Virus record (IMG/VR): IMGVR_UViG_3300047669_001906
Location: 1 to 25,938 of that record
Length of the DNA: 25,938 nt
Origin: a virus
Taxonomy: Duplodnaviria > Caudoviricetes
Direction: 5' to 3' (one strand)
Shown here: positions 465-25,938 of the stretch, piece after piece
How the letters are laid out: every line of letters starts with the position of its first letter
Position numbering within the stretch: position 1 is the first letter of the stretch
Position numbers and translations under genes: made by a program
The notes under the pieces: model-generated
What the model saw: the letters and a program-made list of their open reading frames with translations, nothing else
Database searches by the model: none
Told to the model about the DNA's origin: nothing

Positions 465-511
465 ACAGCAGACCTTTATGGATAACCACAACATCTTTGC
501 GCTGGCCAATA

Positions 512-1822: not shown

Positions 1823-1825
1823 GTA

Positions 1826-2365: not shown

Positions 2366-2374
2366 AGGATAGTT

Positions 2375-3802: not shown

Positions 3803-3823
3803 AATTGACTTCATCGAAAGTGT

Positions 3824-3830
3824 GTAAATA
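3824..3830 (+). promoter_or_regulatory. Putative late promoter (GTAAATA)
   Basis: Intergenic TAAATA core immediately upstream of the gp5 N-terminal ORF. Confidence 0.5.
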
Positions 3831-3835
3831 GAGGT

Positions 3836-4174
3836 ATGGATAGTACAACAGCAATGTCATATCACACTGGACTAGATGGGTTCATCTGGTTTATTGGTGT
3901 CGTTGAATCTAGAGCAACCGATCCTCTCCATGTTAACCGATGTAAAGTACGTGCGCTTGGGTTTCATGAATTGGATACACGAATTCTTCCTACGGCCGAT
4001 CTTCCGTGGGCGCTTCCATTGTTGCCCTTAACAGCGAGCCGTGACACGATAGATATTCTCGAAGGAGATTGGGTGATTGGATTTTTTCTCGACGCTCAAC
4101 TCGCACAACAGCCTATCATCTTTGGAAAACTTCCTGCGTACCCGTCTGATGGGGATGTGGGTTCACAACCATGA
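3836..4174 (+). CDS. gp5: Baseplate central spike gp5, N-terminal OB-fold domain as a separate ORF
   Basis: FIWFIGVVE...DPL...RCKVRALGFH....LPTADLPWA...EGDWVIGFFLD....QQPIIFG.LP is the Gp5_OB signature. The start could also be the ATG at 3854. Confidence 0.88.
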   Translation: MDSTTAMSYHTGLDGFIWFIGVVESRATDPLHVNRCKVRALGFHELDTRILPTADLPWALPLLPLTASRDTIDILEGDWVIGFFLDAQLAQQPIIFGKLPAYPSDGDVGSQP

Positions 4175-6198: not shown

Positions 6199-6208
6199 GT
6201 AAATCAAT

Positions 6209-7363: not shown

Positions 7364-7392
7364 TAGTCTCAATAACCATACCGGAGTCCGCA

Positions 7393-7399
7393 CTAAATA
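7393..7399 (+). promoter_or_regulatory. Putative late promoter (CTAAATA)
   Basis: Intergenic, 5 nt before the gp25 ATG. Confidence 0.65.
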
Positions 7400-7404
7400 G
7401 TCGT

Positions 7405-7815
7405 ATGCCAGAACTTTCCACAACATTCACCACTAGACGGGCATACAAAGATGTGTCGCTGACGTTCGCAAAGAACCCGATCACAAATGATGTCGTGGCG
7501 GTAACTGGTGCGGCTGCCGTCAAGCGGTCATTACGTCTTCTGCTGTCATTGGATACTGGAGAGACGCCGTTCTTACCTGAGTTCGGCACACGGCTGCGCC
7601 AATTGTTGTTTGAACCCATCGACCCGATCACGACCGTAATGCTCCGTGAAGAAATTGAAACGACGATTGTGGCGTTTGAACCGCGTGTCGCCATTCGGCA
7701 ATTGACGGTAACTCCGAGTGCCGACGAATTTACCTATGAAATTAACTTGTTGTTTACTCTCATCAATCAGACTCAACCACTTACGTTGACTCTATATCTT
7801 TCACGGTTGCGATAA
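7405..7815 (+). CDS. gp25: Baseplate wedge subunit / sheath initiator gp25
   Basis: YKDVSLTF.KNPITNDV......AVKRS...L....GETPF.PEFG..L..LLFEP.D......I...I..FEPRV is the GPW/gp25 signature. Confidence 0.95.
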   Translation: MPELSTTFTTRRAYKDVSLTFAKNPITNDVVAVTGAAAVKRSLRLLLSLDTGETPFLPEFGTRLRQLLFEPIDPITTVMLREEIETTIVAFEPRVAIRQLTVTPSADEFTYEINLLFTLINQTQPLTLTLYLSRLR

Positions 7816-7818
7816 CAT

Positions 7819-9720: not shown

Positions 9721-9723
9721 TAT

Positions 9724-12700
9724 ATGCGACCATATCAACCCGGCCAAGAGTTTTACAATCTCATCAAGACCGCAATACCTGACTTTGTAGAGTCAGAGTA
9801 TCCGGTCTTTGTTGAGTTTGTGATGGCGTTCGTACACTTCTTAGAACAAGAACGTACGACAACGACCGCAACGATAACGCCAGAGTTTGGTCCGTCCACC
9901 AGTAATACCACCACGACCACCACGGTTGGTGGTCCGCTTTATGAAGCCCGCAAGCTCTCGGACTATCGAGATACCGCAACGACATTGGACGAGTTTCGTC
10001 CGCGATTCTTTGCGATGTTCGCCAACGAATTTCCACAACACAGTCATATCAGCGCCGATTGGTTTGTGCGGAGCTTGCGGCAGTTCTATCAGAACAAAGG
10101 CACGACCGAGAGCATTCGTTGGTTCTTCCGCGCATTCTTCAACGAAGAGGCGGAAGTCTATTTTCCGCGTGATGATATCTTCACGGCGTCCGAGGGAACG
10201 TGGGATGCGCCCCGGACGCTGAAGGTATCCAATCCACTCGCGGAGTATACGAACACCGGCACCATCATATATTACTCGGCGAACACGGATGTCAATACGT
10301 ATTATACTGGGCAGCGTATTATCACCGGTACCGGCCAAGCAATTGTCGAACGAGTGGTTAGCTATATTGTCGGCGGCACCGCCAACCAGCGCCACGAAAT
10401 TCATGAACTGACACTTCAGCACGGCAGTGTGGGTGGAACGTTTAGTGAGGATCAATTACTCTACAACATCGATACTCCAAACAAGAGGGTCATCACCCGC
10501 ATTCTACCTGTCATCACCGAGATCACGGTGGATATTGGCGGCACCAACTATGCACCGGATGATCTGGTGCTGGTGTCCGAGGGCCCTGCCGGTGGTGGTG
10601 GATTCGGTGCCTACGGTGTTGTAAGCAAAACGTCTAATGGCGCTATCGGTGGTATTACTATCGATGCTGGTGGATCCGGCTTCAGTGTTGGTGAGCCAGT
10701 CCTGTTCTATAGTGCATCGGGAAGTGGTGCCGGAGCGAATGTCGCGACACTTGCGAACACACAAACAGCACTCTACCTTGACGTAATTCTGGATCCGTTT
10801 ACGAACGCAACAGCAACCGTCACGATGGGTGGTGCTGAAGGAACGCCTGCTAATACGTATTCCGCAGCTAGCCAGAACACATGGACTATAGATACGACGG
10901 CCGCCACAGTGTTCGCCGCGGCAGATACGAAACCGTACTATACACCGTGGGTCTGGACAAACTCAGGAAACACGACGGCGACATTGGCGAACGTGTCCAT
11001 CCTCACAGATGACATTTCTACCGCACCGTTCTTTAGTGAGAATGTGGCGACTGCTGCGGGATACACGGGGCAGGTGTACACACTCAGTTCGGCGACGGAC
11101 ACCACATCGAACACATCGACCGCCACGGTTAATGCGACTCCCGTAGGATACTTCACTGGGGATCTCGCGGGGAACGTTAGTCACACGGTTGGCGCCACGA
11201 AGCTCTACTTCGACAATGTGGGGAACCTCAGTGGGTTGACAACGGGGTTGTATGTCAAACAGGATTATGCAAACCTACAAGTTGGCACAGTCACCACGAA
11301 TGGAACGAACACCGTCATCGGTGTGGCCACCCTCTTTTCACAGACGCTCTCTGTTAATTCACACGTCCGTATTGGAAACGTGTCGAGTGGTTATGATGTC
11401 GTGGTTAAGACGATTAACAGTAACACCTCCTTTACTGCGTACACCACTTCGAATACTGTCACGGCGAACACCTATGGTACCTATGCGATAGGGTATGTGC
11501 GTACGCTCTACCCACGGGCGCAGACATCCTATGGTGCCGTGAACACTGTTGCGCTGTCTTCTATTGGTAGCGGATACGCCGTCTCGCCATTGGTGCTTGT
11601 GGATAGTGTCGATGCGCGAGCGCAGGAGTTGTTCTACTACGACACCGATGCGGGCGCTGTGACAAGTACTGTCGGCCGCGTCTTCGGCGTGTATGCAGAC
11701 GCCATCTTGACGGTAGTGGAAGGTGCCGGACAGATCACCCGTGTGAAAATGCAGAATACGGGCGTGCTGTATACTGATGCGAATACTGTCAGCATTAGCG
11801 TCACACGGGCGGCCGCGGAAATAGGTGATCCTGATCAGGTGCAGGTTAGTGCCACGTTGACACCTGTCATCGGCGCAGAGTCGCAATACGAAGGGCAGTT
11901 CACTACGACAAAGAGCTTCCCGTCCGAGAACAAATATCTTCAGGACGGTGAGTACTACAACAACTACACCTACGTCATTCGTGCCGCGCAGTCGTTTAAT
12001 CGCTATAGCGATGTGCTGAAGAAGATCTTGCACCCGGCCGGGTTCCGTGCCTACGGCAAGTTTGTGGTCACCTCAGAAGTGCCTGTGACTGTTACGGGAA
12101 TGACGGAAACCGCTCTTGTGGATCTCAGTTCATTGTCGCAGTCGCCATCGGCGTCTCTGTCACCATCAGCATCAGTGAGCCCGTCAGCGTCGGTGAGCCC
12201 GTCGAGTTCGTTTAGCCCGTCAACGTCGGTGAGTCCGTCGAGTTCGTTGAGCCCATCGAGTTCGTTGAGCCCATCGAGTTCCATATCACCGTCTCTGTCA
12301 CCATCAACATCAGTGAGTCCGTCAACTTCGACCAGTCCGTCAAGCTCCGCGTCTGGGTCAGTGAGCCCGTCAACGTCGGTGAGCCCGTCGAGTTCTGCAT
12401 CGCCGTCAATCAGCCCGTCGAGTTCGGCGTCGAGTTCATTGAGCCCGTCGGGTTCATTCAGCCCGTCAACCTCCACATCGCCGTCGGCGTCACAGTCGAA
12501 CAGTCCGTCGAGTTCTGGCAGTCCGTCGAGTTCGTACAGTCCGTCGCCATCTTCGTCACTGTCTGCGAGCCCGTCAAGCTCAGTGAGCCCGTCGAGTTCG
12601 CAGAGTCCGTCAAGCTCTTCGTCACTGTCTGCGAGCCCGTCAAGCTCAGTGAGCCCGTCGAGTTCATTCAGTCCATCGAGTTCGGTGAGCCCGTCAAGCT

Positions 12701-14166
12701 CCGCGTCGGCCTCCGTGAGCCCGTCAAGCTCCACGTCGGCATCGGTGAGCCCGTCAACGTCAGTGAGCCCGTCAAGTTCATTCAGCCCGTCGAGTTCGTT
12801 CAGCCCGTCGAGTTCGTTCAGCCCGTCGAGTTCTACCTCGGCGTCCGTGAGCCCGTCGAGTTCAGCGTCGCCGTCGGTGAGCCCGTCAAGTTCCCGTTCG
12901 GCATCTCAGTCAATGAGCCCGTCGAGTTCAGTGTCGCCGTCTAGTTCGGTGAGCCCGTCGAGTTCTGGCAGTCCGTCGAGTTCTGGCAGTCCGTCGAGTT
13001 CGTTCAGCCCGTCTAGTTCCGTGTCCGCGTCACTGAGCCCGTCAAGTTCATTCAGTCCGTCAAGCTCATTCAGCCCGTCGAGTTCCACATCGGCGTCCGT
13101 GAGCCCGTCGAGTTCGTTCAGCCCGTCAAGTTCGGTGTCTGCGTCACTGAGCCCGTCGACCTCCGTGTCGCCGTCTAGTTCAGTGAGCCCGTCGAGTTCG
13201 TTCAGTCCGTCAAGTTCCACGTCACTGTCTACGAGCCCGTCAAGTTCATTCAGCCCGTCGAGTTCATTCAGCCCGTCAAGCTCGGTGAGCCCGTCAAGCT
13301 CTGCGTCACGGTCTACGAGCCCGTCAAGTTCTCGTTCAATGAGCCCGTCAAGTTCGGTGAGCCCGTCAAGTTCGGCGTCTGTGACTGATAGTCCGTCTGC
13401 ATCAGTTAGCCCGTCCGCATCGAAGAGTCCGTCTGCGTCACCGTCAGTGTCGTTCAGCCCGTCGAGTTCATTCAGCCCGTCAAGTTCTGGCAGCCCATCG
13501 AGTTCCGTGAGCCCGTCGAGTTCTGCATCAGTGTCGGTGAGCCCGTCGAGTTCGTTCAGTCCGTCGAGTTCGTTCAGTCCGTCGAGTTCATTCAGTCCGT
13601 CGAGTTCAACATCAGCGTCCGTGAGCCCGTCAAGTTCCGTCAGTCCGTCAAGTTCCGTCAGTCCGTCAAGCTCCGCGTCGGTCTCCGTGAGTCCGTCCGC
13701 GTCAGTGAGCCCGTCAAGTTCGGTGAGTCCGTCAAGCTCCGTCAGCCCGTCAAGCTCCACGTCGGCATCGGTGTCCCCGTCAGCGTCAGTCAGCCCGTCA
13801 AGTTCGGTGAGCCCGTCCAGTTCATTCAGCCCGTCGAGTTCGGTGTCTGTGTCAGTGAGCCCGTCGAGTTCGCAGAGTCCGTCATCGTCACAGTCGAACA
13901 GCCCGTCGAGTTCGTTCAGTCCGTCAAGCTCCGCGTCGGTCTCCGTGAGTCCGTCCGCGTCAGTGAGCCCGTCAAGTTCGGTGTCGGCATCGGTGAGCCC
14001 GTCAAGTTCAGTGAGCCCGTCAAGTTCGCAGAGTCCGTCGAGTTCGTTCAGCCCGTCAAGCTCTACGTCACCAACGGTGAGTCCGTCAAGTTCGCACAGC
14101 CCATCATCGTCGTTTAGTCCGTCTAGTTCGTTTAGCCCGTCGGCATCGGTGTCCCCGTCAGCGTAA
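9724..14166 (+). CDS. gp7: Baseplate wedge initiator, gp7-like, with a ~680-aa C-terminal Ser/Pro repeat
   Basis: N-terminal IPDFV.SEYP.FVEF and FYQNKGT.ES..WFFR.FFNEE.EVYFP; C-terminal LQDGEYYNNYTYVI......Y...LKKILHPAGF..YG. It sits between gp6 and gp8. Confidence 0.8.
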   Translation: MRPYQPGQEFYNLIKTAIPDFVESEYPVFVEFVMAFVHFLEQERTTTTATITPEFGPSTSNTTTTTTVGGPLYEARKLSDYRDTATTLDEFRPRFFAMFANEFPQHSHISADWFVRSLRQFYQNKGTTESIRWFFRAFFNEEAEVYFPRDDIFTASEGTWDAPRTLKVSNPLAEYTNTGTIIYYSANTDVNTYYTGQRIITGTGQAIVERVVSYIVGGTANQRHEIHELTLQHGSVGGTFSEDQLLYNIDTPNKRVITRILPVITEITVDIGGTNYAPDDLVLVSEGPAGGGGFGAYGVVSKTSNGAIGGITIDAGGSGFSVGEPVLFYSASGSGAGANVATLANTQTALYLDVILDPFTNATATVTMGGAEGTPANTYSAASQNTWTIDTTAATVFAAADTKPYYTPWVWTNSGNTTATLANVSILTDDISTAPFFSENVATAAGYTGQVYTLSSATDTTSNTSTATVNATPVGYFTGDLAGNVSHTVGATKLYFDNVGNLSGLTTGLYVKQDYANLQVGTVTTNGTNTVIGVATLFSQTLSVNSHVRIGNVSSGYDVVVKTINSNTSFTAYTTSNTVTANTYGTYAIGYVRTLYPRAQTSYGAVNTVALSSIGSGYAVSPLVLVDSVDARAQELFYYDTDAGAVTSTVGRVFGVYADAILTVVEGAGQITRVKMQNTGVLYTDANTVSISVTRAAAEIGDPDQVQVSATLTPVIGAESQYEGQFTTTKSFPSENKYLQDGEYYNNYTYVIRAAQSFNRYSDVLKKILHPAGFRAYGKFVVTSEVPVTVTGMTETALVDLSSLSQSPSASLSPSASVSPSASVSPSSSFSPSTSVSPSSSLSPSSSLSPSSSISPSLSPSTSVSPSTSTSPSSSASGSVSPSTSVSPSSSASPSISPSSSASSSLSPSGSFSPSTSTSPSASQSNSPSSSGSPSSSYSPSPSSSLSASPSSSVSPSSSQSPSSSSSLSASPSSSVSPSSSFSPSSSVSPSSSASASVSPSSSTSASVSPSTSVSPSSSFSPSSSFSPSSSFSPSSSTSASVSPSSSASPSVSPSSSRSASQSMSPSSSVSPSSSVSPSSSGSPSSSGSPSSSFSPSSSVSASLSPSSSFSPSSSFSPSSSTSASVSPSSSFSPSSSVSASLSPSTSVSPSSSVSPSSSFSPSSSTSLSTSPSSSFSPSSSFSPSSSVSPSSSASRSTSPSSSRSMSPSSSVSPSSSASVTDSPSASVSPSASKSPSASPSVSFSPSSSFSPSSSGSPSSSVSPSSSASVSVSPSSSFSPSSSFSPSSSFSPSSSTSASVSPSSSVSPSSSVSPSSSASVSVSPSASVSPSSSVSPSSSVSPSSSTSASVSPSASVSPSSSVSPSSSFSPSSSVSVSVSPSSSQSPSSSQSNSPSSSFSPSSSASVSVSPSASVSPSSSVSASVSPSSSVSPSSSQSPSSSFSPSSSTSPTVSPSSSHSPSSSFSPSSSFSPSASVSPSA
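12127..14163 (+). repeat. Long imperfect tandem repeat, unit ~18 nt (AGCCCGTCRAGTTCN-TTC/GTG), encoding SPSSS[F/V/G/Q] interspersed with SAS[V/L] spacers
   Basis: Directly visible. About 2 kb, in frame throughout, ending at the stop codon of the gp7-like gene. Confidence 0.98.
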
Positions 14167-14177
14167 ATGGATCACCG

Positions 14178-14184
14178 CTAAATA
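14178..14184 (+). promoter_or_regulatory. Putative late promoter (CTAAATA)
   Basis: Intergenic, upstream of gp8. Confidence 0.65.
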
Positions 14185-14216
14185 CATTATGAGTTTCCGT
14201 ACAGGTCACATCTATT

Positions 14217-15680
14217 ATGCCCACTAACGATACACGTAAATATCTGACATTTTTGTCGAAGCGTTTGAATGAAACGCTGGTGACGAACGAGAAATACGAG
14301 AGTCTCGTTACGACATTTCAGAGTTATCTAGCCGATACCTCGACGGCGGCCGAGGTGAATACGCTGATCGACGATCTTGGCGATATTAGTTCGCGACTCT
14401 ATTTGGGCATTGGACGCCCGGTTGCGTGGGATAACGATAACGCTCCACCGACGCCGGAGACAACGACACAAGCTGTGGACTACATATGCTGGCGTGACTT
14501 GATGGCGATGAAGCGTATTGAAAGTGCGAATACCGCATATGTCATTTCGCGTGTAAACTGGGAAACCAATACCATCTATACACAGTACGACGATACCGTC
14601 GAAAATATTGCGAACACGAACGTGTATGCGCTCGACACCAATGAACTTCCATACAAAGTCTACAAGTGCCTGTGGAACAATAATGACGGCCGCAGTACGA
14701 CCGCTCCGAGTACGACAGGGAATACCGTCAGCCCTGTGGCTACCGCTGACGGATATGTCTGGCAGTACCTCTATAGTATTACAACGGATGATTATCAGTT
14801 TCTCACGACATCGTGGATGCCTGTGCGTACGGATAGTTTAGTCCGCACCTATGCGACCGACAATCCCGGTAAGTTGTCAACCGTCGTGCCCTGTATTATG
14901 ACTGCCAATGGCACGAACTACGATCCAGCGGGTACGTTGACGGTGACTGTCACGGGCGACGGAAACGGCGCGATCATCGCTGCGAATACTTTGAGTTTGA
15001 CATTCACGTCAAACACGACTACGAATATCACACCGTCGAACGGTGGTATTGGGTATACGACAGTAGATACGATTATCGTGGAACAGTCCGGCCGCGCAGT
15101 CGGTTCAACGAATGCGACGGCGCGTATGATTATTCCTGTGTATCCTAATCACGGATATGACCCGCAACGCGAGTTGGGTGCTTCGGCCATTATGTTGAAC
15201 ACCACGTTGCAAGATGACGAAACCGATCAACTATCAACGGTGAACGACTATCGACGGATTATGTTGATTGACAATCCACTCTTGGCGAATGGCGCAAGTG
15301 CCAATGGATCGTTTTACCGACAGACGTTCGACATTACTCTCTCTGCCAATACGGGTGTCTTTGCGCCGGACGATGGAATCAAGGTAACAAACAACACCGC
15401 GTATGCCGTCACTGCTACGGTGGTAGATACGGTTCTTGTATCCAGCGTGCCCGTGGTGCGTGTGACGGATATCAACGACAAGGGCCGTGATGTGGCATTT
15501 CAAATTGGCGACGAAGTCACAGATACGACAACCGAGGGTGTCATTGGTGTAGTCTCAGCGATATCTGCGCCTCAACTGAAACCTTTCTCCGGTGATGTGT
15601 TGTATGTCGATCAACGGGCGCCCGTCACACGGGACCCCAATCAAGCGGAAGATATCAAATTAATCTTTCGATTTAATTAA
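14217..15680 (+). CDS. gp8: Baseplate wedge subunit gp8
   Basis: LYLGIGRPVAW....PP.P, W.D.MAMKRI......VI.R.NW...T.Y..YDD, YKVYKCL.N, DGYVWQYLYSI...F.T..WMPV, HG.DP..ELG, NDYRRI.LI.NP, and the terminal SGDVLYVDQR.PVTR...Q.EDIKLIF.F. Confidence 0.93.
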   Translation: MPTNDTRKYLTFLSKRLNETLVTNEKYESLVTTFQSYLADTSTAAEVNTLIDDLGDISSRLYLGIGRPVAWDNDNAPPTPETTTQAVDYICWRDLMAMKRIESANTAYVISRVNWETNTIYTQYDDTVENIANTNVYALDTNELPYKVYKCLWNNNDGRSTTAPSTTGNTVSPVATADGYVWQYLYSITTDDYQFLTTSWMPVRTDSLVRTYATDNPGKLSTVVPCIMTANGTNYDPAGTLTVTVTGDGNGAIIAANTLSLTFTSNTTTNITPSNGGIGYTTVDTIIVEQSGRAVGSTNATARMIIPVYPNHGYDPQRELGASAIMLNTTLQDDETDQLSTVNDYRRIMLIDNPLLANGASANGSFYRQTFDITLSANTGVFAPDDGIKVTNNTAYAVTATVVDTVLVSSVPVVRVTDINDKGRDVAFQIGDEVTDTTTEGVIGVVSAISAPQLKPFSGDVLYVDQRAPVTRDPNQAEDIKLIFRFN

Positions 15681-15687
15681 CTAAATA
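15681..15687 (+). promoter_or_regulatory. Putative late promoter (CTAAATA)
   Basis: Intergenic, immediately after the gp8 stop. It is the last such intergenic motif seen before the window end. Confidence 0.65.
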
Positions 15688-15720
15688 TGATAGAATACTT
15701 CTTCATAAACGAGATACTGA

Positions 15721-18700
15721 ATGGCACTTAGCAACACCACAGAAAATACGCTGCGAACGACACCGTATTACGATGACTATTACGAAGTCGCCAACACGAC
15801 CACTGGGCTGTTGCGTGGTGATGACTTCGACTTTCATCGAATCATGTTTCGTCCACGCTACGGTGTTCAGGCGCGTGAACTAACGCAGATACAAACACTT
15901 TTACAGTCGCAGTTGGAGCATCTCGGCACGACGCAGTTCCGTGATGGGGATCGCGTCCTCGGCGCGTCGTTGACGATTGATACATCCGCTAATAGTGGAC
16001 AGGTACTTGCGACCACGAATCTGGCGAGCTTCTTCAATCGCACCACGAATGACGGCAAGTATGTTTATGCCAAAGTGGCAGGAGTAACGGATCTCACGAC
16101 CACGGGGCGCATCACACAGTTTGTCTCGATTGATGACGCCGAAACCACGAACAACTATCTCGTCTTCAAATACACCAGCACCAACACCTTTGGCGCGGAA
16201 GGCGTTATTCAGGATCGCGATGACGCGACGGTAACGGCGACGTTCGCAGCGGGAGCGAATTCGTCTGTCTTTCATAGTGCATCCACGATTAGTGTGGATG
16301 AAGGGGTGATGTTTGTCTCCGGCTTCTTCGTACGCGTCAAGCCGCAGACTATCGTGCTTGATGCGCTAACGAACACTCCCTCCTACCGGGTCGGTATGGA
16401 AGTCGTGGAAGAGTTCCTCGATGAACTGGATGATGTCGTCGGTGCGTCACTCCTTGATGAAGCGAATCGTAGCGCCGTTGGCGCACATCGGTTCCGTGTT
16501 CGTCTGACCCTGTCGAAGCGAGCTATTACGGACACTGCGGATGCTGGATTCATTGAGATCGCTCGCGTCGTTGACGGGCAGATTCTCTACACGCAATCTA
16601 ATGCAAAATATGTCACGGCCGCTGAACTGAAGCTCACGCTCGCACGGCGTACCTACGACGAGTCCGGCGACTATATGATTCGCCCGTTCTTGCCCGTAGT
16701 GGAAGCTGCGAGCTTGGCCAATTCTACGAACTCTGCGGATATCACAACTCTCCAGTTATCGCTCTCGTCAGGAAAGGCGTATGTGCGTGGGTTTGAAATG
16801 GAAACCACCGCGCCGGTGCGGCTGAGTATTGACAAGGGACGAACGACGGAATCGGCGACCAATCGAACACTACCCGCGACCGTAGGAAGTTACCTGCTAG
16901 TCAACCGTGTCTCTGGTACAACGGCGCCGAACAACTATTTTGTTGGCACCACGACAGTAGACGTACACTCTGTTGCGCCGACGAGTATTGATACGGCAAG
17001 TGCGACGACGTACGCGTACTCGAAGATTGGTACCGCGAAGGTTCGAATGCTGGAAAGCTATAGTGTTCCACTCGCGGCCGCCATTTCGGAACTTGCGAAC
17101 AGTAGCGTCTACAAACTCTTTACATACGATTGGAATTTTACAAGTCTCACAGGAAATCTAGCGAGTACAGCCACGATTGTTGATGGAGCAATCCAGTTAC
17201 CGGTTGCGGTAGGAGATGGGTTCCCGGCTGTCAACACAGCAATTACGGGGGCAACCGTCGTTCTTAGTGGTGCGGCTTCTCCGGTAACGGGCACGTTCAC
17301 CGCTAATAGCTACCACTTTCTCGGTTCGGACGCGTATATCACGCTGAAAGAATATCTTGCTGTACTGCCAAATGCGAATACCACCTATCGTTTGTTATTC
17401 CAGCCAAGAGACGCGGATGCGTTTACGTTGTATGATGCTACAAAAGCTTACGACAATGCGATATATGCGGACAATCTCTCTTTCCAAGCGAACGTAGCGC
17501 CTGCTGGAAAGATTAACGGCACACCCAACGGCTATTCACTGATTAGTTCCACGGGCACCAACAAACTGATTTACCAGCTTCCCGAAAAGTTTATCGAGTC
17601 GGGAAGTATTGACACAAGCACCGCAACGTTCTCTACGTGGCATGCGTCGGCTTCAAATACTCGGACCTTCAGTAGCGCCACTAGCGGCGCGCTGTCACTT
17701 TCGTTCGCAGGAAATACCTTTAGCATTCCCGCAGGAACCTATACGGCAGAAGAAGCTCGAAAGTATTTCACGATCTTTGATATCACCGCTGATGCAAATG
17801 GATATGGTCAAGTTGTCCAGTTTACCGATTCCACGCCGGCCGGGAGCGAGCGAGCGATTAACGGCGTGAGTATCTCTTCTGCTGGTTCGCCAACAGGAAG
17901 TGAGTATCACCTATCATTCACGTACTACCACGGCGCGTCAACGAGTGATACGCGCACCTTCATCGCGACTGGTAAAGCTCTCGTCACTGGTTCGTCCGCA
18001 CGAACGAAAAACTATTATGTTGGTAATACTACGAGCTACCATGCGTCTGCAACGACCGCGTTGGTTAATGGACAGGTGGAATATCATACGCTGAACACGG
18101 CGCCGAGCTTTGCGTATTCGCTTCGCACACATGATGTGACGAATCTGCGGAAGGTACTGTATAAGAGCAGCAACACGGTCTTCTCTACTGGAGATATGTC
18201 TACCGCCACGGATGTTACGTCGCACTTCAGACTGGATACGGGGCAACGCGACAACCATTACAACTACGGCCGCGCCATTGTCGGGACGGGCGCAAGTGCT
18301 GTGATCGTCACGACTGGGCGTCTGCTGTTTATCTTTGACCACTTCATGCACTCGGGTATTGGATACGCGACGGTGGATAGTTATCTCTCGACGAACAATG
18401 TCGATAAGGGCATGACGTACGATACTATTCCCACGTATGTCTCTCCGAAATATGGGCGAGGGACGAACTTACGTGCCTGTCTGGACTTCCGTGTCGCGCA
18501 AGGCCATTATGGGGCGGCGACCGGAAATGTTGCGTTGGTGTTTGCGTCAACAAATACGAGTGCCAACAGCACATATGCGGCCAGCGATGGTACGCCCTAT
18601 CTTATTCCCGTGTCCGACGATATCTGGAATGGTGATTACGATTACTATCTGGCGCGGAAGGATGCTGTATCGATTACCGCCAACGGAGCGTTCCATGTCA

Positions 18701-19569
18701 CGAAAGGACAGGCTGCGGTATTCCCAGAGGCGCCGCATATCGAAGCAACAGACTTGTTGCTCTATCGATTGACTATTCCTGCATATACGCTCGTTGATGG
18801 GGCGGGCATTCCTACTAATGTCACCGTGAAGTCGTACGACTACAAGCGATACACAATGCGGGACATCGCAAAGGTGGACGACCGTGTAAAGCGGGTAGAG
18901 TACTATACGGCACTGTCGCAACTGGAACGCCTCACGCTTGACACGACGGAACTAGATGCCGACGACAACGAGCGGTTCAAGAACGGGATTGTGGTGGATA
19001 ATTTTACAAGCACCGGAACCGCGCATGTGTCCCATATAGACTTCGCCGCGTCCATTGACACACGCAAGCACGTACTACACTCCGCGTTCAGATCGTTCTC
19101 GACGCAGTTCAGCACGGACTATGCGAACACCACCACGGCTGGTATTACCGTTGTTGGTGATATCGCCATTCCGGCCTATACGACGGAGGAGTTCATTTCA
19201 CAGCCGTTAGCAACCAAATCGGTTTCGGTAAACCCATTTGATATCGGTTCCTTCTACGGGAAGATTCAATTGTCACCAGCGGTGGATACGTGGAAGTCTA
19301 CCACGACACTTCCGGCACAGGTAATAGACGGGGGTGGTCCGACGCAAGCGTGGATCAATGCAAACCTGCCTGCGTACACGGTGTGGGGTGAATGGAATAC
19401 GACATGGACCGCAACAGCACCCGAAGAAGAAGAAGAAGAAGAGAATGGCACAGAATGGCGTGTCAACGAGGGGAGTGAGAGCGCAAAGGCAGGCGAGTAT
19501 AATTGGCGAAGTTGGGAAGCCTGGGACGCCGCCGGTAATCCACCACTCGTAAGACGGACCGACGTTTGA
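15721..19569 (+). CDS. Large virion structural protein, VrlC/DUF4815-like, N-terminal part
   Basis: PYYDDY...FHRIMFRP...VQARELTQIQ..LQ.Q, A.GAHR, LARRTYDESGDY, GKAYVRGFE, LDTGQRDN.Y, KRYTMRDI.....R...VEYYT.LS.LE, RFKNG..VDNF, QPLAT..V.VNPF and L.P..DTW are hallmarks of this family in environmental T4-like phages. Confidence 0.85.
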   Translation: MALSNTTENTLRTTPYYDDYYEVANTTTGLLRGDDFDFHRIMFRPRYGVQARELTQIQTLLQSQLEHLGTTQFRDGDRVLGASLTIDTSANSGQVLATTNLASFFNRTTNDGKYVYAKVAGVTDLTTTGRITQFVSIDDAETTNNYLVFKYTSTNTFGAEGVIQDRDDATVTATFAAGANSSVFHSASTISVDEGVMFVSGFFVRVKPQTIVLDALTNTPSYRVGMEVVEEFLDELDDVVGASLLDEANRSAVGAHRFRVRLTLSKRAITDTADAGFIEIARVVDGQILYTQSNAKYVTAAELKLTLARRTYDESGDYMIRPFLPVVEAASLANSTNSADITTLQLSLSSGKAYVRGFEMETTAPVRLSIDKGRTTESATNRTLPATVGSYLLVNRVSGTTAPNNYFVGTTTVDVHSVAPTSIDTASATTYAYSKIGTAKVRMLESYSVPLAAAISELANSSVYKLFTYDWNFTSLTGNLASTATIVDGAIQLPVAVGDGFPAVNTAITGATVVLSGAASPVTGTFTANSYHFLGSDAYITLKEYLAVLPNANTTYRLLFQPRDADAFTLYDATKAYDNAIYADNLSFQANVAPAGKINGTPNGYSLISSTGTNKLIYQLPEKFIESGSIDTSTATFSTWHASASNTRTFSSATSGALSLSFAGNTFSIPAGTYTAEEARKYFTIFDITADANGYGQVVQFTDSTPAGSERAINGVSISSAGSPTGSEYHLSFTYYHGASTSDTRTFIATGKALVTGSSARTKNYYVGNTTSYHASATTALVNGQVEYHTLNTAPSFAYSLRTHDVTNLRKVLYKSSNTVFSTGDMSTATDVTSHFRLDTGQRDNHYNYGRAIVGTGASAVIVTTGRLLFIFDHFMHSGIGYATVDSYLSTNNVDKGMTYDTIPTYVSPKYGRGTNLRACLDFRVAQGHYGAATGNVALVFASTNTSANSTYAASDGTPYLIPVSDDIWNGDYDYYLARKDAVSITANGAFHVTKGQAAVFPEAPHIEATDLLLYRLTIPAYTLVDGAGIPTNVTVKSYDYKRYTMRDIAKVDDRVKRVEYYTALSQLERLTLDTTELDADDNERFKNGIVVDNFTSTGTAHVSHIDFAASIDTRKHVLHSAFRSFSTQFSTDYANTTTAGITVVGDIAIPAYTTEEFISQPLATKSVSVNPFDIGSFYGKIQLSPAVDTWKSTTTLPAQVIDGGGPTQAWINANLPAYTVWGEWNTTWTATAPEEEEEEENGTEWRVNEGSESAKAGEYNWRSWEAWDAAGNPPLVRRTDV
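19423..19443 (+). repeat. (GAA)6GAG microsatellite encoding poly-Glu
   Basis: Directly visible near the 3' end of the first VrlC-like ORF. Confidence 0.9.
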
Positions 19570-19602
19570 GCGACGGCTAACACATAACTTTCGAAGGACA
19601 CT

Positions 19603-22600
19603 ATGTCAGAAACAGTAACCGCATCTGTGTCGGAACGCACAGGCACCGAATTTTCATACACCTCGCAAACGAATACACAGTCACTTGGCAACGTGATTTT
19701 GGACACCTCTGTTGTTCATAGTATCCGAGCCCGAGACGTTGTGTTCGCCGCCAATGGGTTGCGTCCGAATGCCACGCTGTATCCGTTTTTTGATAGTGTG
19801 TCGGTGCAAAAATATGTGCAGCAAGCAAATGTGCTTGAACTGAACCCCGTCGCTGCGAGTGACATTCCCTCGGGCACCTTCTTCATTGGACAGACGCTCT
19901 ATGTGAAAAAAGCCTTGACGGGGACCGTAAGCACTATCACCAATTCAACGGCAGTCACCGGAACCAGTACTGAGTTTGACTTCGAATTGTTGTCGAATCA
20001 GTTGGTGCGTGTCAAGTCTGGTGTGGATGTGTTTGATCGATACATCGCCAGTGTTTCGTCAAACACCGCCGCGACCTTCGATAGCAATGCTGCCCTCAGG
20101 TTGAATGGTGCAACCCTTTACACATTGACCCGTGTCGTGGTCGCAGATGTCACCCCGCGTTTGTCGAACTCGGGCGCTACGATCACATACACACTCAAGT
20201 GCACTCGGGCGCAGCAGGATGTGGACGCTGATGCCATTCTTGGGCCCGGGCTGAACTACGGCAGTGCGACGGGTACATTTACGGATCGTGGATCGCGCCT
20301 CATTCTACCGGAAGATAATGGCGCGTATGCTCGGAAGTTTAGCTACGCCGCCGGGAGTTTGCGCCCCGAGAAAATGGCGAAAGATTCTGGTGTTGGCACG
20401 GTCGGTGCCGAGGTTATTTTGCCGATGTCCTCCCGTACGTCCAGTGTTCTCAGCGCGGCCAGTGTTGCGGTAGAAACAAAGACACTCACGGTTAACACGG
20501 CGGTGATTACCTCGGGCGTCGTGCGGGCGTATGATTCAAACAACCTTCGGTTGGACGTGGACATCACGGATACCAAAATCGCCAACACCACGGTGATCTA
20601 TTTTGTCGGTGGGCCTGGCGCGGGACAGAGTGCGAGTGTCACCAACTATCACTCAGCGAACCAGACGGCGGTTATTGATACAAGCGCACTCACAGATATC
20701 ACAGCGGGACAGACGATCTATAGCGTCGGGTCGTTGTCATCTGATGGGTTCCTTGCGAACAGTACGGTGACTGCGGGTGGTGCGGGTACCGTATCGGGGG
20801 TGCTTCATCTTCAGGAAGGGCAGTTCGCGACTGGTCAACGACTCTTCCGTTTGACGGATAGCAGTACAAACGATCTCTCAAGCGCCACGACCACCGCAGA
20901 AACCAACTATGTGGCCTCCGGTTTGTCGGTGTCGCAGCAACCCACTAGTATCGTATCTCGTACCACCAATGTCACGCGACGTGGTGTCCACGACTCTCGT
21001 TATTGGGAGAACGACACCTACACGTCATGCCCAGAAGGATGGGCAGATCCACTAGCGGAAACGTTCCTTGTGGATGCGACACGCTTTCCACAGGGTATCA
21101 TGCTAGCCTCGGTGGACTTGGTGTTCTCAGCAAAACCTACCGATGACATTCCAGTCACGGTTGAACTTCGACCAGTTATCAATGGATATCCTTCGTCATA
21201 TCAGGTAGTGCCGTGTGCGTCACCAGAAGGACAAGCGTCTACCACACTGCGGTACGACGCCGTGAATGTTGTCACAACGGATTTGTCTACCGCGTTCAGC
21301 AACACATCCGCGTACACGCGATTCACGATGCCCTCACTGGTTCACCTGTTGCCTGGTATTGAGTACGCCCTTGTGGTTCGCTCCGACTCTTCGGAATATA
21401 AAGTCTACACCGCCGAACTCGGCGCGCAGGTGCTTGGCACCGATAAGAAGGTTGCGAAGCAGCCCTATGCGGGCAGCTTCTTCAAGTCACAGAACGGATC
21501 GACGTGGACCGAAACACCATTTGAAGATATGATGTTCCGCTTGAACAAAGCAAAGTGGACATTGTCGAGTGGTGCGAACACTGGCATCCTTGTCGCCCGT
21601 GGCGTGCAACCGGCGACAACCAAGACATTTGATTCGATGACGTTCTATCCGTATGAAGTTACCTTCCCGTTGGTGACATCGACGAGCTATTCGTTGAGCG
21701 TCAAGCCAGAAGGTTCGGGCACCGCAGTTGCGTATAGCGTTCAACCGAACAAACTGGTAGCGTTGTCCTCACGGTCGTTCTTAACCGGGAGCTACGACGC
21801 GAACGCTGCGCCACAGTTCTACCCTGCTTTTGCGAATAGTGCGCCAGCGGGTCAGACAGTCAGCGGGGTGTCAGCGAATACCATCGATACCATCGCCACG
21901 CTCACAACGCGAAGCACTGATGTCGCACCGTATGTCGATCTAAAAAAGATGACTGTCCTTGGTATACAGAATCGCATCAATGAGATGGAACTGTATGCGA
22001 CACAGTTTGTCATTCTCGATCCCGGTAGTGGCTATGCGAATGCGGCCGCAGCCACAGGCACCGTCACGACGGTCGCATCGTCTAACGTTGTGACAGGGAC
22101 GGGCAGTGCGTTCCTCACCTCAGTTATTGTGGGACGAGATGTGGTGATCGGGGCCAACTTGGCGGTGACCGTTGCGTCCATCGAAAGCGACTCTCAGTTT
22201 ACTGCGACAACGACCGCCGGTGAAGCCCGCGTCGCGAATGCGTTCTCGACCTTTGCGAACCTGACGATGACAATAAGCGCCAGTAATGTCGGTGCGAATG
22301 CAGTAGGATACGCAGTTGTATCCACCGTCAATAGTTCCATCGTCACGGGCACTGTTACTAGTCTTGTGTTAACGACTGACGGAAGTGGCTACCTCACTAC
22401 GCCGACTGTTACGGTATCTGGCAATGCGGCGCTGACGTATCGTGGCGAGGACTCCGCACAGCATGGTAATGCGCTGACACGATACTTCACACGGGAGGTG
22501 TCGTTAGCGGAAGGGTTCGACGCTCGCGACATCAAGATGTACTTTGATGGATATCGCCCCGAGGGTACTAACTTCTATGCCTATTACAAGGTGCTATCGG

Positions 22601-22857
22601 GCACGTTGGATAGCGAGAGGTTTGCGGATCAGCCATGGCGATTGATGACACAAATCACGCCGGATGGAGTGATCAGCACACGTGCCACACAGTATCGGGA
22701 GTTTGAGTTCCGCACGCCGCAAAGTCAAGCGTTGACATCATCTACGGATACCACGGATCGGTTCAAAGTGTTCTCCATTAAAATAGTGATGTCTACCAAC
22801 GATACGACCGTCGTGCCGAAGATTCGCAACTTCCGCGCTATTGCCTTGGATGAGTAA
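19603..22857 (+). CDS. Large virion structural protein, VrlC/DUF4815-like, C-terminal part
   Basis: It has an AAGGA RBS and motifs IRAR.V.F...GLRPN...YPFFD, F.TG.R.FRLTDS, DPLAETF.V......G..L.SVDL.FS.KP, T.F.....V.L....EYA.V, QPY.GSFFKSQNGSTWT....ED.MF.L.KA, and the terminal F..FSIKIVM......VP.I.N.RAIAL. Confidence 0.85.
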   Translation: MSETVTASVSERTGTEFSYTSQTNTQSLGNVILDTSVVHSIRARDVVFAANGLRPNATLYPFFDSVSVQKYVQQANVLELNPVAASDIPSGTFFIGQTLYVKKALTGTVSTITNSTAVTGTSTEFDFELLSNQLVRVKSGVDVFDRYIASVSSNTAATFDSNAALRLNGATLYTLTRVVVADVTPRLSNSGATITYTLKCTRAQQDVDADAILGPGLNYGSATGTFTDRGSRLILPEDNGAYARKFSYAAGSLRPEKMAKDSGVGTVGAEVILPMSSRTSSVLSAASVAVETKTLTVNTAVITSGVVRAYDSNNLRLDVDITDTKIANTTVIYFVGGPGAGQSASVTNYHSANQTAVIDTSALTDITAGQTIYSVGSLSSDGFLANSTVTAGGAGTVSGVLHLQEGQFATGQRLFRLTDSSTNDLSSATTTAETNYVASGLSVSQQPTSIVSRTTNVTRRGVHDSRYWENDTYTSCPEGWADPLAETFLVDATRFPQGIMLASVDLVFSAKPTDDIPVTVELRPVINGYPSSYQVVPCASPEGQASTTLRYDAVNVVTTDLSTAFSNTSAYTRFTMPSLVHLLPGIEYALVVRSDSSEYKVYTAELGAQVLGTDKKVAKQPYAGSFFKSQNGSTWTETPFEDMMFRLNKAKWTLSSGANTGILVARGVQPATTKTFDSMTFYPYEVTFPLVTSTSYSLSVKPEGSGTAVAYSVQPNKLVALSSRSFLTGSYDANAAPQFYPAFANSAPAGQTVSGVSANTIDTIATLTTRSTDVAPYVDLKKMTVLGIQNRINEMELYATQFVILDPGSGYANAAAATGTVTTVASSNVVTGTGSAFLTSVIVGRDVVIGANLAVTVASIESDSQFTATTTAGEARVANAFSTFANLTMTISASNVGANAVGYAVVSTVNSSIVTGTVTSLVLTTDGSGYLTTPTVTVSGNAALTYRGEDSAQHGNALTRYFTREVSLAEGFDARDIKMYFDGYRPEGTNFYAYYKVLSGTLDSERFADQPWRLMTQITPDGVISTRATQYREFEFRTPQSQALTSSTDTTDRFKVFSIKIVMSTNDTTVVPKIRNFRAIALDE

Positions 22858-23063
22858 TGCTGATACAGACCGATGACCGCAAGCATGTACGGGACACCTA
22901 TAACAACGCGTTACTATTAACCGACAAAAAGGCTCTCACGCGGTCGCGGGCCCGACGCGAATCCGCGAAGGGCGTATTGTCCCTTAGATCTGAGATTGAC
23001 GAATTGCAAGCACATGTGTTACAATTGACTTTACATGTCACACAACTTCTTAAGGCAAGATAA
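22857..23063 (+). CDS. Small coiled-coil protein of the type usually following VrlC-like genes in T4-like phages
   Basis: TAATG coupling at both ends; RD..N.A...TD motif plus a C-terminal heptad (LRSEIDELQAHVLQL). Confidence 0.7.
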   Translation: MLIQTDDRKHVRDTYNNALLLTDKKALTRSRARRESAKGVLSLRSEIDELQAHVLQLTLHVTQLLKAR

Positions 23064-23749
23064 TGGCTAAGGTTGCTGGTAGTATTTGGGTCGAAGGAAC
23101 CGCGCTTCATTATGTGGATAGCGCGGCTGTAGAATATTATATTATCGGCACCAACAAGGGGTCGGCCGGCGCCGGTATAAATGGCTCAATTTGGATGGAG
23201 TCTGATCGTTTACGGTATGTAGATACCTCTGGAAACATACGCGAATGTTCTACTATAGACACCTATGGTACACATACGGGCGCGGTTGCCGGATCACTGT
23301 GGATAGAAAATACTGCGGCTGGGAATCAGCAGTTACGGTATATTGCCAGCGGAACTGGTGAGAACTCCCCGCATGATGATGTGGCATTTGGGGACGTATC
23401 ACATTCGGACGTGGCGCATACCGATACGACTACACACAACGATATACATACCGATAACCATAGCGACTCTGGCGGGCCCGGCCACACGGATTCGGCCGAA
23501 GGTAGTGGCCATGCTGATCATAACGATGATCATGGTGACCACGATGATGATAGCGATCACACTGATAACGACGGGCAGCCGCACGGAGATCACAGCGACG
23601 GCGCGGGGCACGGCGATCATAACGATGATCATGGTGACGAAACTACCGAGTCGCACACCGATAGTTCTAGCCATTCGGACGTAGCACACACAGATGTTCC
23701 ACACGCAGATGCCACACATGCTGATCAGCCCATTTACGTGGGTGCGTAA
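23063..23749 (+). CDS. His-x-Asp repeat protein: three N-terminal GS(I/L)W.E...L.Y repeats plus 22 HxD motifs; candidate radical-SAM substrate and candidate virion fibre/decoration
   Basis: The ORF is coupled to the structural operon and its motifs are directly visible. Function is inferred from the adjacent rSAM/SPASM gene. Confidence 0.8.
   Translation: MAKVAGSIWVEGTALHYVDSAAVEYYIIGTNKGSAGAGINGSIWMESDRLRYVDTSGNIRECSTIDTYGTHTGAVAGSLWIENTAAGNQQLRYIASGTGENSPHDDVAFGDVSHSDVAHTDTTTHNDIHTDNHSDSGGPGHTDSAEGSGHADHNDDHGDHDDDSDHTDNDGQPHGDHSDGAGHGDHNDDHGDETTESHTDSSSHSDVAHTDVPHADATHADQPIYVGA
23372..23725 (+). repeat. HxD tripeptide array with internal duplications (exact 24-nt repeat at 23516-23539 and 23615-23638; HSDVAHTD twice)
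   Basis: Counted by hand from the translation and the nucleotide sequence. Confidence 0.92.
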
Positions 23750-23769: not shown

Positions 23770-25029
23770 ATGAGTATTGAGATTCGACCTGTTGGCGTCA
23801 GTTGTCAGTTGCAATGCACCTATTGTTATGAAGAGGGAATGCGAGAAGAGCAGCGATCACATCGATATGATCGTGATGCGGTATTAGCCTCCATCAAAAA
23901 ACTTGGTCCCAAGGACCATTTCTCTTTATTTGGTGGGGAGTGTTTGTTATTGCCACTCCATCATCTTGAGGAACTCCTGTCAATTTCCCATGCCCGATCA
24001 GGTCGTTCATCGGTGCAGACTAATGGCGCATTGATTACCGACAAACATATTGAACTGTTCATTAAGTACAACACACATGTGGGTATTTCATTAGATGGCC
24101 CAGATGAATTAAATGACAGTCGGTGGGCAGGTACATTAGAGGCGACACGCAAGCAGACAGCACGAACGCTTCATGCGATTGATACGTTGCTTTCGTTATC
24201 GGTACAACATCCGCGTCTTCGGCCCAGTCTTATTGTCACTATGCACGCCGGGAATTCTAGTGCAGAACGATTTCCTCGGTTTGTGTCATGGCTTCATGAG
24301 TTAGATGATCGGGGGCTTAAACAGATAAATCTTCATACAATGGAGATGGATCACAAAGCAGATACATTATACCTGCCACAAGAAGAATTGTCGGATCGGT
24401 TATTGGACATTTGGCGAATCCATGTTCCAACATTTAAGCAACTACGCATGTCTAAATTTGAGGAGATTTTGAAACTCCTCAGGGGTGCTGATGATGTCGT
24501 GTGTCATTGGAAACCGTGCGACCCGTGGAATACAAGTGCCGTCAACGGTATTGAGAACGACGGTTCTGTCTCTCACTGCTCGCGAACAAACAAAGACGGG
24601 TTCAACTGGATGCCAGCAGAGGGGTCGGGCGACCCAAATGGTAGTTTCATAGGGCACCCAGGCGCTCGCCACTATGAACGACAGATGGCGCTCTACCAAG
24701 CACCACAAGAATTTGGTGGATGCAAAGATTGTGAATATTGGTTGATGTGCTACGGTCAATGCCCAGGCGAAGGGCAGTCCAATGATTGGCGAATGCGTTC
24801 TACATATTGTTCAACATACAAGAAGTTATTTGCAGAAGGCGCACGAAGACTTCGTGAGGCGGGGACGATTCCGCTGTGTGACTGGACGAATAGAAAAGAA
24901 CTTGAGCAGGCAGCGTTTTCGAAATGGCAGAATCAATCATCGTCACACTTATCAACATTAACCGGGCAGCCCAACGGCGGTAGGCAATCTCACGGCGATC
25001 ACACGGATCACAATGATAATACATTATGA
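23770..25029 (+). CDS. Radical SAM / SPASM-domain enzyme (anSME / peptide-maturase class)
   Basis: CQLQCTYC (CxxxCxxC), FGGE, QTNG and GISLDGP..LND.R in the core. The C-terminal Cys cluster (C.WKPC...DG.V..C...CKDC...MC.G.CP...YC) is consistent with SPASM auxiliary clusters. Confidence 0.93.
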   Translation: MSIEIRPVGVSCQLQCTYCYEEGMREEQRSHRYDRDAVLASIKKLGPKDHFSLFGGECLLLPLHHLEELLSISHARSGRSSVQTNGALITDKHIELFIKYNTHVGISLDGPDELNDSRWAGTLEATRKQTARTLHAIDTLLSLSVQHPRLRPSLIVTMHAGNSSAERFPRFVSWLHELDDRGLKQINLHTMEMDHKADTLYLPQEELSDRLLDIWRIHVPTFKQLRMSKFEEILKLLRGADDVVCHWKPCDPWNTSAVNGIENDGSVSHCSRTNKDGFNWMPAEGSGDPNGSFIGHPGARHYERQMALYQAPQEFGGCKDCEYWLMCYGQCPGEGQSNDWRMRSTYCSTYKKLFAEGARRLREAGTIPLCDWTNRKELEQAAFSKWQNQSSSHLSTLTGQPNGGRQSHGDHTDHNDNTL

Positions 25030-25938
25030 ATGATAAACAGAATGTTCTAGCAAGTGACACCCCCACACTTCCCGATTGGACACGATGGTCGTGGCGAAGT
25101 CCAGTTGAACGTGAGTGGTGGAATCCGTTGTTCAAAGCAGCGGCGAATGCCTATGAAAGTGTTGAACGGTTGTCGGTTGTTGATGGCGTTCGCTCGGCGG
25201 CATCGCAGATAATAGCACCCGAAGAATTAGTAGGGCTCACAGAGTGGGCGCGCAATCATAATATTCTTTGCATACCAATAGATAGAATTAGTTATTCCAA
25301 TTCATACTCATCGGTAGAAACGAAACTAAAAAATGGTGAACGATTTAAGTATCGGGTGTTGTTTGTTCGTCCAGAACAATACGCAGATACCGTCGATTTA
25401 TCAAATATCTCCTCGCGTTCCGACCGTCGATCCGCGACGGCGCCGTCATATGTCGACCGATTCGGGAAACTATTAGGCTTTCCCGAATGTTGCCGAAAAG
25501 CGTTTCTGGAAACGTGGGGTCGCGGGCAAGTCGATAGTACATGGGAGCAACATTGTTCGCCCATGTTACCCATGACCAGTACACTGTTGCGGTGGATGGG
25601 TCTTCGCCTCGTCTCTCACATGCCATGTCATTATAGGTGTGAAGCATCACAAAAGATTGCGGAGCAAATGTTTCAGGTGGGCGCGCGGCATGGATATCTG
25701 GAAGAGATGCGATTGATTAAGGAAGTCCTCGCGTGGCCAGTAAAATGGTCTCGGCTGTTCGGGATTGCGGAGATTGTAACTCCTGCGGTCAAAATTTCCA
25801 CACGCACCGATTGGACACCTCGTAAAGATGAGTTCAGTACGACGGGTCCGTATCGACAACCGAAGAAAACGTGGTGGATAAACAACGGATTCGATAATGC
25901 TCGGGACCTGGGCCGAGCGCACGGGGACATGGTTAACG
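25026..25938 (+). CDS. Cys-motif protein (GKLLGFPECC...HMPCHYRC; resembles DUF483-like proteins), truncated by the window end
   Basis: Not in the ORF track because there is no stop in the window. ATGA overlap with the rSAM stop. Manual translation MNDKQNVLASDTPTLPDWTRWSW...FGKLLGFPECCRKAF...LLRWMGLRLVSHMPCHYRCEAS...WPVKWSRLFGIAEI.TP...WWINNGF is open for over 300 codons. Confidence 0.8.
   Translation, partial: MNDKQNVLASDTPTLPDWTRWSWRSPVEREWWNPLFKAAANAYESVERLSVVDGVRSAASQIIAPEELVGLTEWARNHNILCIPIDRISYSNSYSSVETKLKNGERFKYRVLFVRPEQYADTVDLSNISSRSDRRSATAPSYVDRFGKLLGFPECCRKAFLETWGRGQVDSTWEQHCSPMLPMTSTLLRWMGLRLVSHMPCHYRCEASQKIAEQMFQVGARHGYLEEMRLIKEVLAWPVKWSRLFGIAEIVTPAVKISTRTDWTPRKDEFSTTGPYRQPKKTWWINNGFDNARDLGRAHGDMVN

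Follow-up and report, generated by a model that had tools for sequence, protein, structure and literature searches.

A 25,938-nt stretch of DNA from a large phage (positions 1 to 25,938 of IMGVR_UViG_3300047669_001906, Caudoviricetes; hereafter the window) ends in three genes. The first encodes a protein with a tail of aromatic-x-Asp triplets, the second a radical SAM/SPASM enzyme and the third a DUF483-like partner. The question raised by this locus is whether the array of triplets is a substrate of the adjoining enzyme and, if so, what the product would be. The original prediction favoured an enzymatic aromatic-x-Asp crosslinking motif over a His/Asp-rich metal sponge.

The triplet array and its neighbours

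As shown in Table 1, the three genes follow a T4-like baseplate module. Locus L004, which is identical to the window across the enzyme, contains the complete partner (458 amino acid residues, with a methyltransferase-like C-terminal part) and, downstream of it, a fibre-like gene and then neck genes. After the neck genes L004 carries a second, distinct radical SAM gene and a glycosyltransferase-like gene (13076-14904). Long Ser/Pro-rich repeats (S-P-S-A-S-x) were seen in structural-region proteins of L016 (2-1129), L087 (9530-10665), L091 (10074-11144) and L004 (11652-12590), three of them joined to H-x-D arrays; these repeats are possible glycosylation stalks.

Table 1. Positions of the features of the window that are discussed in the text.
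Feature	Coordinates	Strand	Remarks
T4-like baseplate module: gp53, gp5, gp25, gp6, gp7, gp8-like, DUF4815	497..23063	+	
Small virion structural gene	22857-23063	+	
Triplet-array protein, 228 aa	23063..23749	+	Predicted fibre-tip cap and putative substrate
N-terminal domain, three G-S-x-W repeats	23063..23371	+	W9, W44, W80 invariant
Array, 23 aromatic-x-Asp triplets (22 His, 1 Phe)	23372..23725	+	His104 begins at 23372, Asp221 finishes at 23725
F-G-D unit, in register	23387..23395	+	Retained by near relatives
His177 codon	23591..23593	+	Tyr in L071 and in contigs from three seawater RNA runs
Radical SAM/SPASM enzyme, 419 aa	23770..25029	+	CxxxCxxC at 12/16/19, no N-terminal extension
Three C-terminal H-x-D triplets of the enzyme itself	24991..25017	+	
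DUF483-like partner	25026..25938	+	Incomplete at window end

From residue 104 onwards all 22 His have Asp at +2, as originally predicted. The middle residue is one of the six foreseen (T6, S4, G4, N3, A3 and D2), and the run HDDVA-FGDVS-HSDVA-HTD is present with its F-G-D unit. Phe109 of this unit is the sole non-His aromatic residue ahead of the last triplet in the array tail, and its codon, TTT, is two changes away from a His codon. A second F-G-D is present in L006, L007 and L070. Together the 23 triplets make up 58% of the tail, and some adjoin without a spacer. Their starts are irregularly spaced (3-9 residues), with a period of 5 only at both ends of the array, which makes the triplet, rather than any repeat of fixed period, the unit of the array. 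The same irregular spacing speaks against a regular solenoid ladder.

When residues 105-223 were shuffled 200,000 times, the number of H-x-D had a mode of 5 and a maximum of 14, against 21 observed. A chance or off-frame repeat origin was ruled out by this test, by the varied codons and by the conserved homologues. The 228-residue protein gave no match in Pfam, PHROG or NCBIfam, and 22 homologues of it were found. Up to 23 sites in one chain had been thought exceptionally dense; for the family this number turned out to be modest, with 90 H-x-D in L030 and 101 in a protein of phage phiLo. The array is a real, non-random feature and part of a widespread viral module.

Positions 1 and 3 of the triplet across homologous tails

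A set of 108 proteins with the N-terminal domain was reduced to 62 at <80% identity and, after omission of P0013, which has no triplets, to 61 tails. The residue at His+2 in these tails was Asp in 1647, Asn in 161 and Glu in 5 of 1849 cases. For the other aromatic residues, 59 His-type tails were used with the His triplets held fixed, the two Phe-type proteins being excluded. Free Asp/Asn was found at +2 of 135/209 Phe (14.9 expected, ~9x chance), 128/240 Tyr (17.8 expected, ~7x chance) and 17/44 Trp (5.2 expected, ~3x chance), and these counts were equalled in 0 of 400 shuffles. No other residue type, metal ligands included, was significantly enriched at position 1 of the 59 tails: C/M/E/Q preceded Asp/Asn 16 times with 18.8 expected, and the one-step His-codon neighbours Q/R/N/D/L/P did so 53 times with 74.9 expected. 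The aromatic excess was seen in 47 of the 54 testable proteins (Trp by itself in 7 of 28). At the control offsets +1 and +3 the top enrichments were 2.2 and 2.6, with aromatics at 0.25-1.8. Mutational decay of His codons was rejected as the source of these aromatics, since it may yield some Tyr, not Phe, and the other one-step neighbours are unenriched.

Two tails are nearly all Phe. That of L046 has Asn/Asp at +2 of 39 of its 42 Phe, and that of L052 has Asn, Ser, Gln or Asp at +2 of 99 of 103 Phe, with just 2 His and 8 Asp along its 487 residues. At Phe+2, Asn is commoner than Ser or Asp, and Gln occurs in L052. The cap, enzyme and partner of both loci are the same as in His-type loci, and the L046 enzyme groups with His-type enzymes in the tree. 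Besides the His177-to-Tyr allele (Table 1), three further tail substitutions were seen in the population of the window phage itself, all at position 2 or in spacers; the seawater RNA contigs cover 16-25 of 30 bins per run and are silent on transcription, strand and level. The Phe/Tyr/Trp enrichment, the Phe-type tails and the His177-to-Tyr allele indicate that position 1 is aromatic. Judged from these tails, position 3 takes Asp, Asn, Ser or Gln, without Asp being fixed. The expectation that H, F, Y and W would vary at position 1 while Asp stays fixed therefore holds for the aromatic residue and fails for Asp. The preference for a putative crosslinking motif over a metal sponge is partly supported by the aromatic grammar and the adjoining radical SAM enzyme, while a fixed Asp and an unusual density drop out as grounds for it.

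The array might instead stay unmodified and bind metal at the fibre tip through its His and Asp, with the enzyme serving elsewhere. HxH motifs at the T4 fibre tip bind iron (PMC11705849), and the tips are alike in being His-rich, although the window motif is not HxH. The dominance of His-x-Asp (1647/1849), the presence of the phage in seawater RNA runs and the triplets of L183, which have no enzyme nearby, would all suit such an element. However, the replacements found are Phe/Tyr/Trp and Asn/Ser/Gln, not Cys, Met or Glu, the L052 tail is almost devoid of His and Asp, and the tight linkage to the enzyme described below is left unexplained. We consider an unmodified metal-binding element unlikely. 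Metal binding by the finished protein is a different matter: His dominates position 1, which crosslinking alone does not explain, and by analogy with the iron-binding HxH motifs the modified tail may still bind metal.

Enzyme, partner and distribution of the module

Clustering at 90% identity grouped the 147 enzyme loci into 92 clusters; the partner occurs in 85 of them and a triplet or cap protein in 74. In the 42 clusters with at least 4.5 kb on either side, the partner is present in 42/42 and a triplet or cap protein in 40/42, or 41/42 when counting L122, whose triplet protein was merged into a longer frame by the ORF caller. L142 carries both enzyme and partner, and no triplet protein was seen around them. 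Among 1047 ORFs lying >6 kb from the enzyme, two were triplet-rich, both in module-bearing phages. In the reverse test, a DNA pattern scan gave at least 125 loci, with flanks for 79. Twenty were retained because their longest frame contains a varied array with strict His triplets; the 59 dropped were simple, short or off-frame repeats, plus L191, where the match was the enzyme's own tail. Among the matches listed, the enzyme is present in 19/20 loci and 15/16 contigs; 5 of the 16 contigs had previously been found via the enzyme. In L183 (9815-10912), all 14 His of the array are in H-x-D at the end of the protein, together with a short collagen-like stretch, and no enzyme was found within its 78-kb contig, which is 41% complete. 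The L183 array gene adjoins glycosyltransferase-like genes. A scan of genome contigs gave no locus.

The window enzyme has eight SPASM-type Cys (245, 250, 270, 318, 321, 327, 331 and 347). Its nearest profile models are anSME, AmcB, YhhB, DynA and DarW; among solved structures, anSME and ChlB come nearest in sequence. An anaerobic sulfatase maturase, with the array incidental, would explain why anSME tops both the NCBIfam and the PDB matches, and in one cellular-type locus (L120) a sulfatase gene does lie ~3 kb upstream. However, the score against the anSME model TIGR03942, the top match, is 86 bits with a cut-off of 349, no sulfatase was found in the 16 window proteins scanned, and the enzyme is linked to triplet proteins, not sulfatases. 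This identity appears extremely improbable. The enzyme also scores far below the cut-offs of the cyclophane-synthase models AmcB (75/425 bits), YhhB (61/445), GrrM/OscB (49/310), FxsB (35/370) and XyeB (32/450).

At least two H-x-D are present in the enzyme's own tail in 97 of 120 homologues (P0023-P0142), mostly as H-G-D and up to 32 in P0119; such a tail may be modified by the enzyme itself, act as a decoy or serve in recognition. It is missing in many enzymes of the cellular-type clade. In a post hoc comparison, which is taken as supporting evidence only because it uses the best columns of ~400, is uncorrected for kinship and includes several non-TN enzymes that are simply divergent, single enzymes with T273-N274 accompany Asn-rich substrates in 0/44 cases and those without it in 10/26. 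The seven two-enzyme clusters all have one T-N copy and one other, with an Asn share of 0.10-0.60. The window enzyme is of the T-N type, and the putative substrate in the window has Asp at position 3 throughout.

Five residues of the partner are invariant (C155, C156, H198, C201 and C205). A fold search with the partner gave no Foldseek match and a best Z of 7.3 to 2GUK (rmsd 3.8, 111 aligned), a result that tested only residues 56-137 well and does not mean a new fold. The ESM Atlas clusters returned were all unnamed or DUF483.

Cultured carriers of the module are the Thermus phages Cumys, phiMa and phiLo. In phiLo (L147, 17807-23663), three adjacent proteins have 72, 101 and 55 H-x-D, with no cap and on the strand opposite the enzyme. 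A plasmid of the cultured archaeon Halomicrococcus gelatinilyticus (L273, 2659-7498) carries, behind a baseplate J gene, the complete set of fibre tag, cap with 16 triplets, enzyme and partner-like gene. In the Halorussus plasmid locus L272 the enzyme is accompanied by a partner-like gene, and no triplet protein was seen in the vicinity. A separate enzyme clade of 27 entries (support 95 in a quick tree) goes with short or Tat-leader triplet peptides. None of its members comes from the viral collection, and in 16 of its loci 26 of 43 neighbour proteins match Pfam, none of them phage structural. Short or Tat-leader H-x-D peptides were seen in the cellular-type loci L109, L134, L144, L112, L115, L122, L127 and L140; these loci resemble RiPP clusters of the conventional kind. 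In L110, L134, L140 and L144 the enzyme is fused to the partner. As the tree is a quick version with 90 of the 92 clusters, no donor or direction of transfer is claimed.

In a 2024 paper the gene trio of Cumys and phiMa was named an 'rSAM module' and tentatively assigned to DNA modification (PMC11437467). By sequence comparison the window system is a member of this module. The same three genes are present (Cumys_13/12/11), the enzymes share 39-40% identity with that of the window, and the cap domain, triplet array and upstream fibre tag are common to both. The window differs in belonging to a T4-like phage and in having a partner with an added methyltransferase-like part. A module modifying phage DNA was proposed since cyanobacterial homologues lie near deazapurine genes (PMC11437467). 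However, the module is placed among tail genes, its third gene encodes the triplet protein (54/54 His in triplets in Cumys_13), and the enzyme is peptide-maturase-like with triplets on its own tail. The paper leaves the third gene unexplained, the passages found in it do not take up the His-rich protein, its main text has 'histidine' and 'RiPP' 0 times, and a search of one supplementary file gave no matches (PMC11437467). Modification of DNA by this module is very unlikely in our judgement.

The predicted fibre-tip cap and the candidate crosslink

The N-terminal domain of the triplet protein comprises 103 residues and is folded (model pLDDT 93). Fibre-like proteins that are otherwise unrelated carry a C-terminal tag with the consensus R-L-V-L-P-V-G-x-N-K-W. 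The tagged fibre gene is mostly directly upstream of the cap gene and in some cases fused to it, and the tag is present in 34/39 clusters with a cap and 0/53 without. Two fibre-plus-cap pairs per enzyme set were observed in L002 (6604-7984), L021 and L025. For a model of the complex, the C-terminal 45 residues of the L004 fibre were folded as three chains together with a single cap, which gave an ipSAE of 0.93, against 0.02 for the best of 3 controls, with at least 98% contact agreement between runs and a partner pLDDT of at least 94. The 0.93 mark was reached by 116/157 solved complexes and 2/215 mismatched pairs, counts that apply only roughly here because the trimer and the author-made alignments differ from the calibration jobs. 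In the model W9, W44 and W80 each meet the tag proline of a separate chain. The N-terminal domain is predicted to cap the P-V-G tag of the fibre trimer.

The T-even adhesin gp38 is a monomer that caps the gp37 fibre trimer via Trp contacts and displays a low-complexity distal part. The window cap resembles it as a predicted monomer on a trimeric fibre with Trp contacts and a low-complexity distal part. Unlike gp38, it is an all-beta three-repeat domain, and its distal aromatic-x-Asx array is linked to a maturase. The cap gave no Foldseek match at E 0.001 (one 342-aa viral model came up), its best Z to the beta-prism lectin-like fold (LlpA, GNA type) was 4.5 (rmsd 3.3, 82 aligned), and a sequence search of solved structures gave no match; such weak matches do not show a new fold. 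P0013 joins the cap to a Cys-rich tail, which suggests that the cap may bear other cargo. Elsewhere arrays are fused to large tail-region proteins, one of which is a homologue of the central tail fibre J; most of the others gave no PHROG match.

YxdB is a triceptide synthase acting on a His motif. Other triceptide synthases act on His motifs as well (HaaB on HAA, YhhB on HNR and HtkB on HTK), and further ones are MicB (YSK/HAS/FTK) and ChlB (YDR) (PMC11499958, PMC12912966). They join His C2 to C-beta, HtkB also accepts Phe and Trp, and in HtkB and HaaB position 3 is under active-site control (PMC11499958). The window system shares with them the aromatic-X2-X3 motifs with exchangeable aromatics, an adjoining radical SAM enzyme with SPASM architecture and cysteines, and enzyme residues that track X3. 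In contrast to their short leader-core peptides, the window has a 228-residue protein with a folded structural domain. A conventional leader, a protease and a short cleaved precursor are absent, the N-terminus being the folded 103-residue domain. It is further set apart by its tens of sites, by the viral tail setting and by the DUF483-like partner, and here the crosslink is one that we infer. As the enzyme fails the family cut-offs and a short cleaved precursor is lacking, the system is not filed as a triceptide system.

The same triplets could be modified by the enzyme and partner through another chemistry: an HXS-like reaction, an N-to-C link, or a partner-dependent rearrangement or methylation at Asp/Asn. 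The closest protein-scale precedent is HxsA of the anti-phage system HxsABCD, a whole His-x-X-repeat protein matured by radical SAM enzymes with a partner subunit, in which the change on His-x-Ser is +8 Da rather than -2 Da (PMC13128918). A His-x-X repeat beside a radical SAM enzyme therefore need not give a simple cyclophane. The partner is near-obligate (85/92 clusters) with invariant Cys/His, a methyltransferase-like motif occurs in 58 of the 85 partner clusters, and the enzyme stands outside every named triceptide family, all of which would fit another chemistry. However, 27 of the 85 clusters are without the motif and the Cumys partner is without the domain, and the interchange of His, Phe, Tyr and Trp suits attack on a ring carbon, as Phe has no heteroatom. 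The HXS system is bacterial, with His-x-Ser and basic repeats and a periplasmic defence role (PMC13128918); the window array belongs to a phage, is acidic and is predicted to lie on the virion. All 23 window triplets end in Asp, not Ser, and no HxsB or HxsC model is among the best 25 of 48 NCBIfam matches of the enzyme. Another chemistry on the same triplets is conceivable but rather doubtful. A literature search, with most subscription journals outside its coverage, returned no paper on a virion protein modified by a radical SAM enzyme or on such an array; published triceptide sequence networks lay outside the search and might include the window enzyme family.

It is very probable that the adjoining enzyme modifies the triplets in some way, and the modified product is probably a cyclophane. 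Triceptide-like aromatic-to-Cβ crosslinking of a virion fibre-tip protein is the best reading, with a probability of roughly 0.6. In this proposal the triplet array would be the substrate of the radical SAM/SPASM enzyme, which would act during infection, probably aided by the DUF483-like partner. Hydrogen would be taken from the Asp C-beta, and the position-1 aromatic ring would be bonded to the position-3 Asp C-beta, giving a three-residue cyclophane with -2 Da each, up to 23 in the chain. One copy of the three-repeat cap is predicted to dock on the fibre trimer, with its invariant Trp packed on the invariant tag Pro, and the flexible acidic tail would be converted into a rigid extension of the fibre tip that resists proteases. 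This extension may in the end serve receptor contact, shielding or metal binding, which is the least certain step.

The chances are about even for the broader proposal that tailed viruses of bacteria and archaea use their own RiPP-type maturase and partner to make a poly-cyclophane polymer of 10 to ~100 stapled triplets, attached to fibre tips by the portable tag-and-cap or fused to tail proteins. Since the triplet protein is predicted to cap the tail-fibre tip, the crosslink chemistry would be carried by the virus particle, which would then bear crosslinks so far described for small bacterial peptides, at tens of rings per chain. If this is true, the enzyme would be leader-free, staple tens of sites per chain and might serve as a tool for stapling peptides at many sites, and tag and cap together would be a portable means of cargo display on fibre trimers. 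It would also give a role to DUF483 and a function to the gene trio of at least 92 enzyme clusters, including those of cultured Thermus phages and of a baseplate-gene locus on a haloarchaeal plasmid, and the triplet proteins would be virion structural proteins of a new, covalently stapled class.
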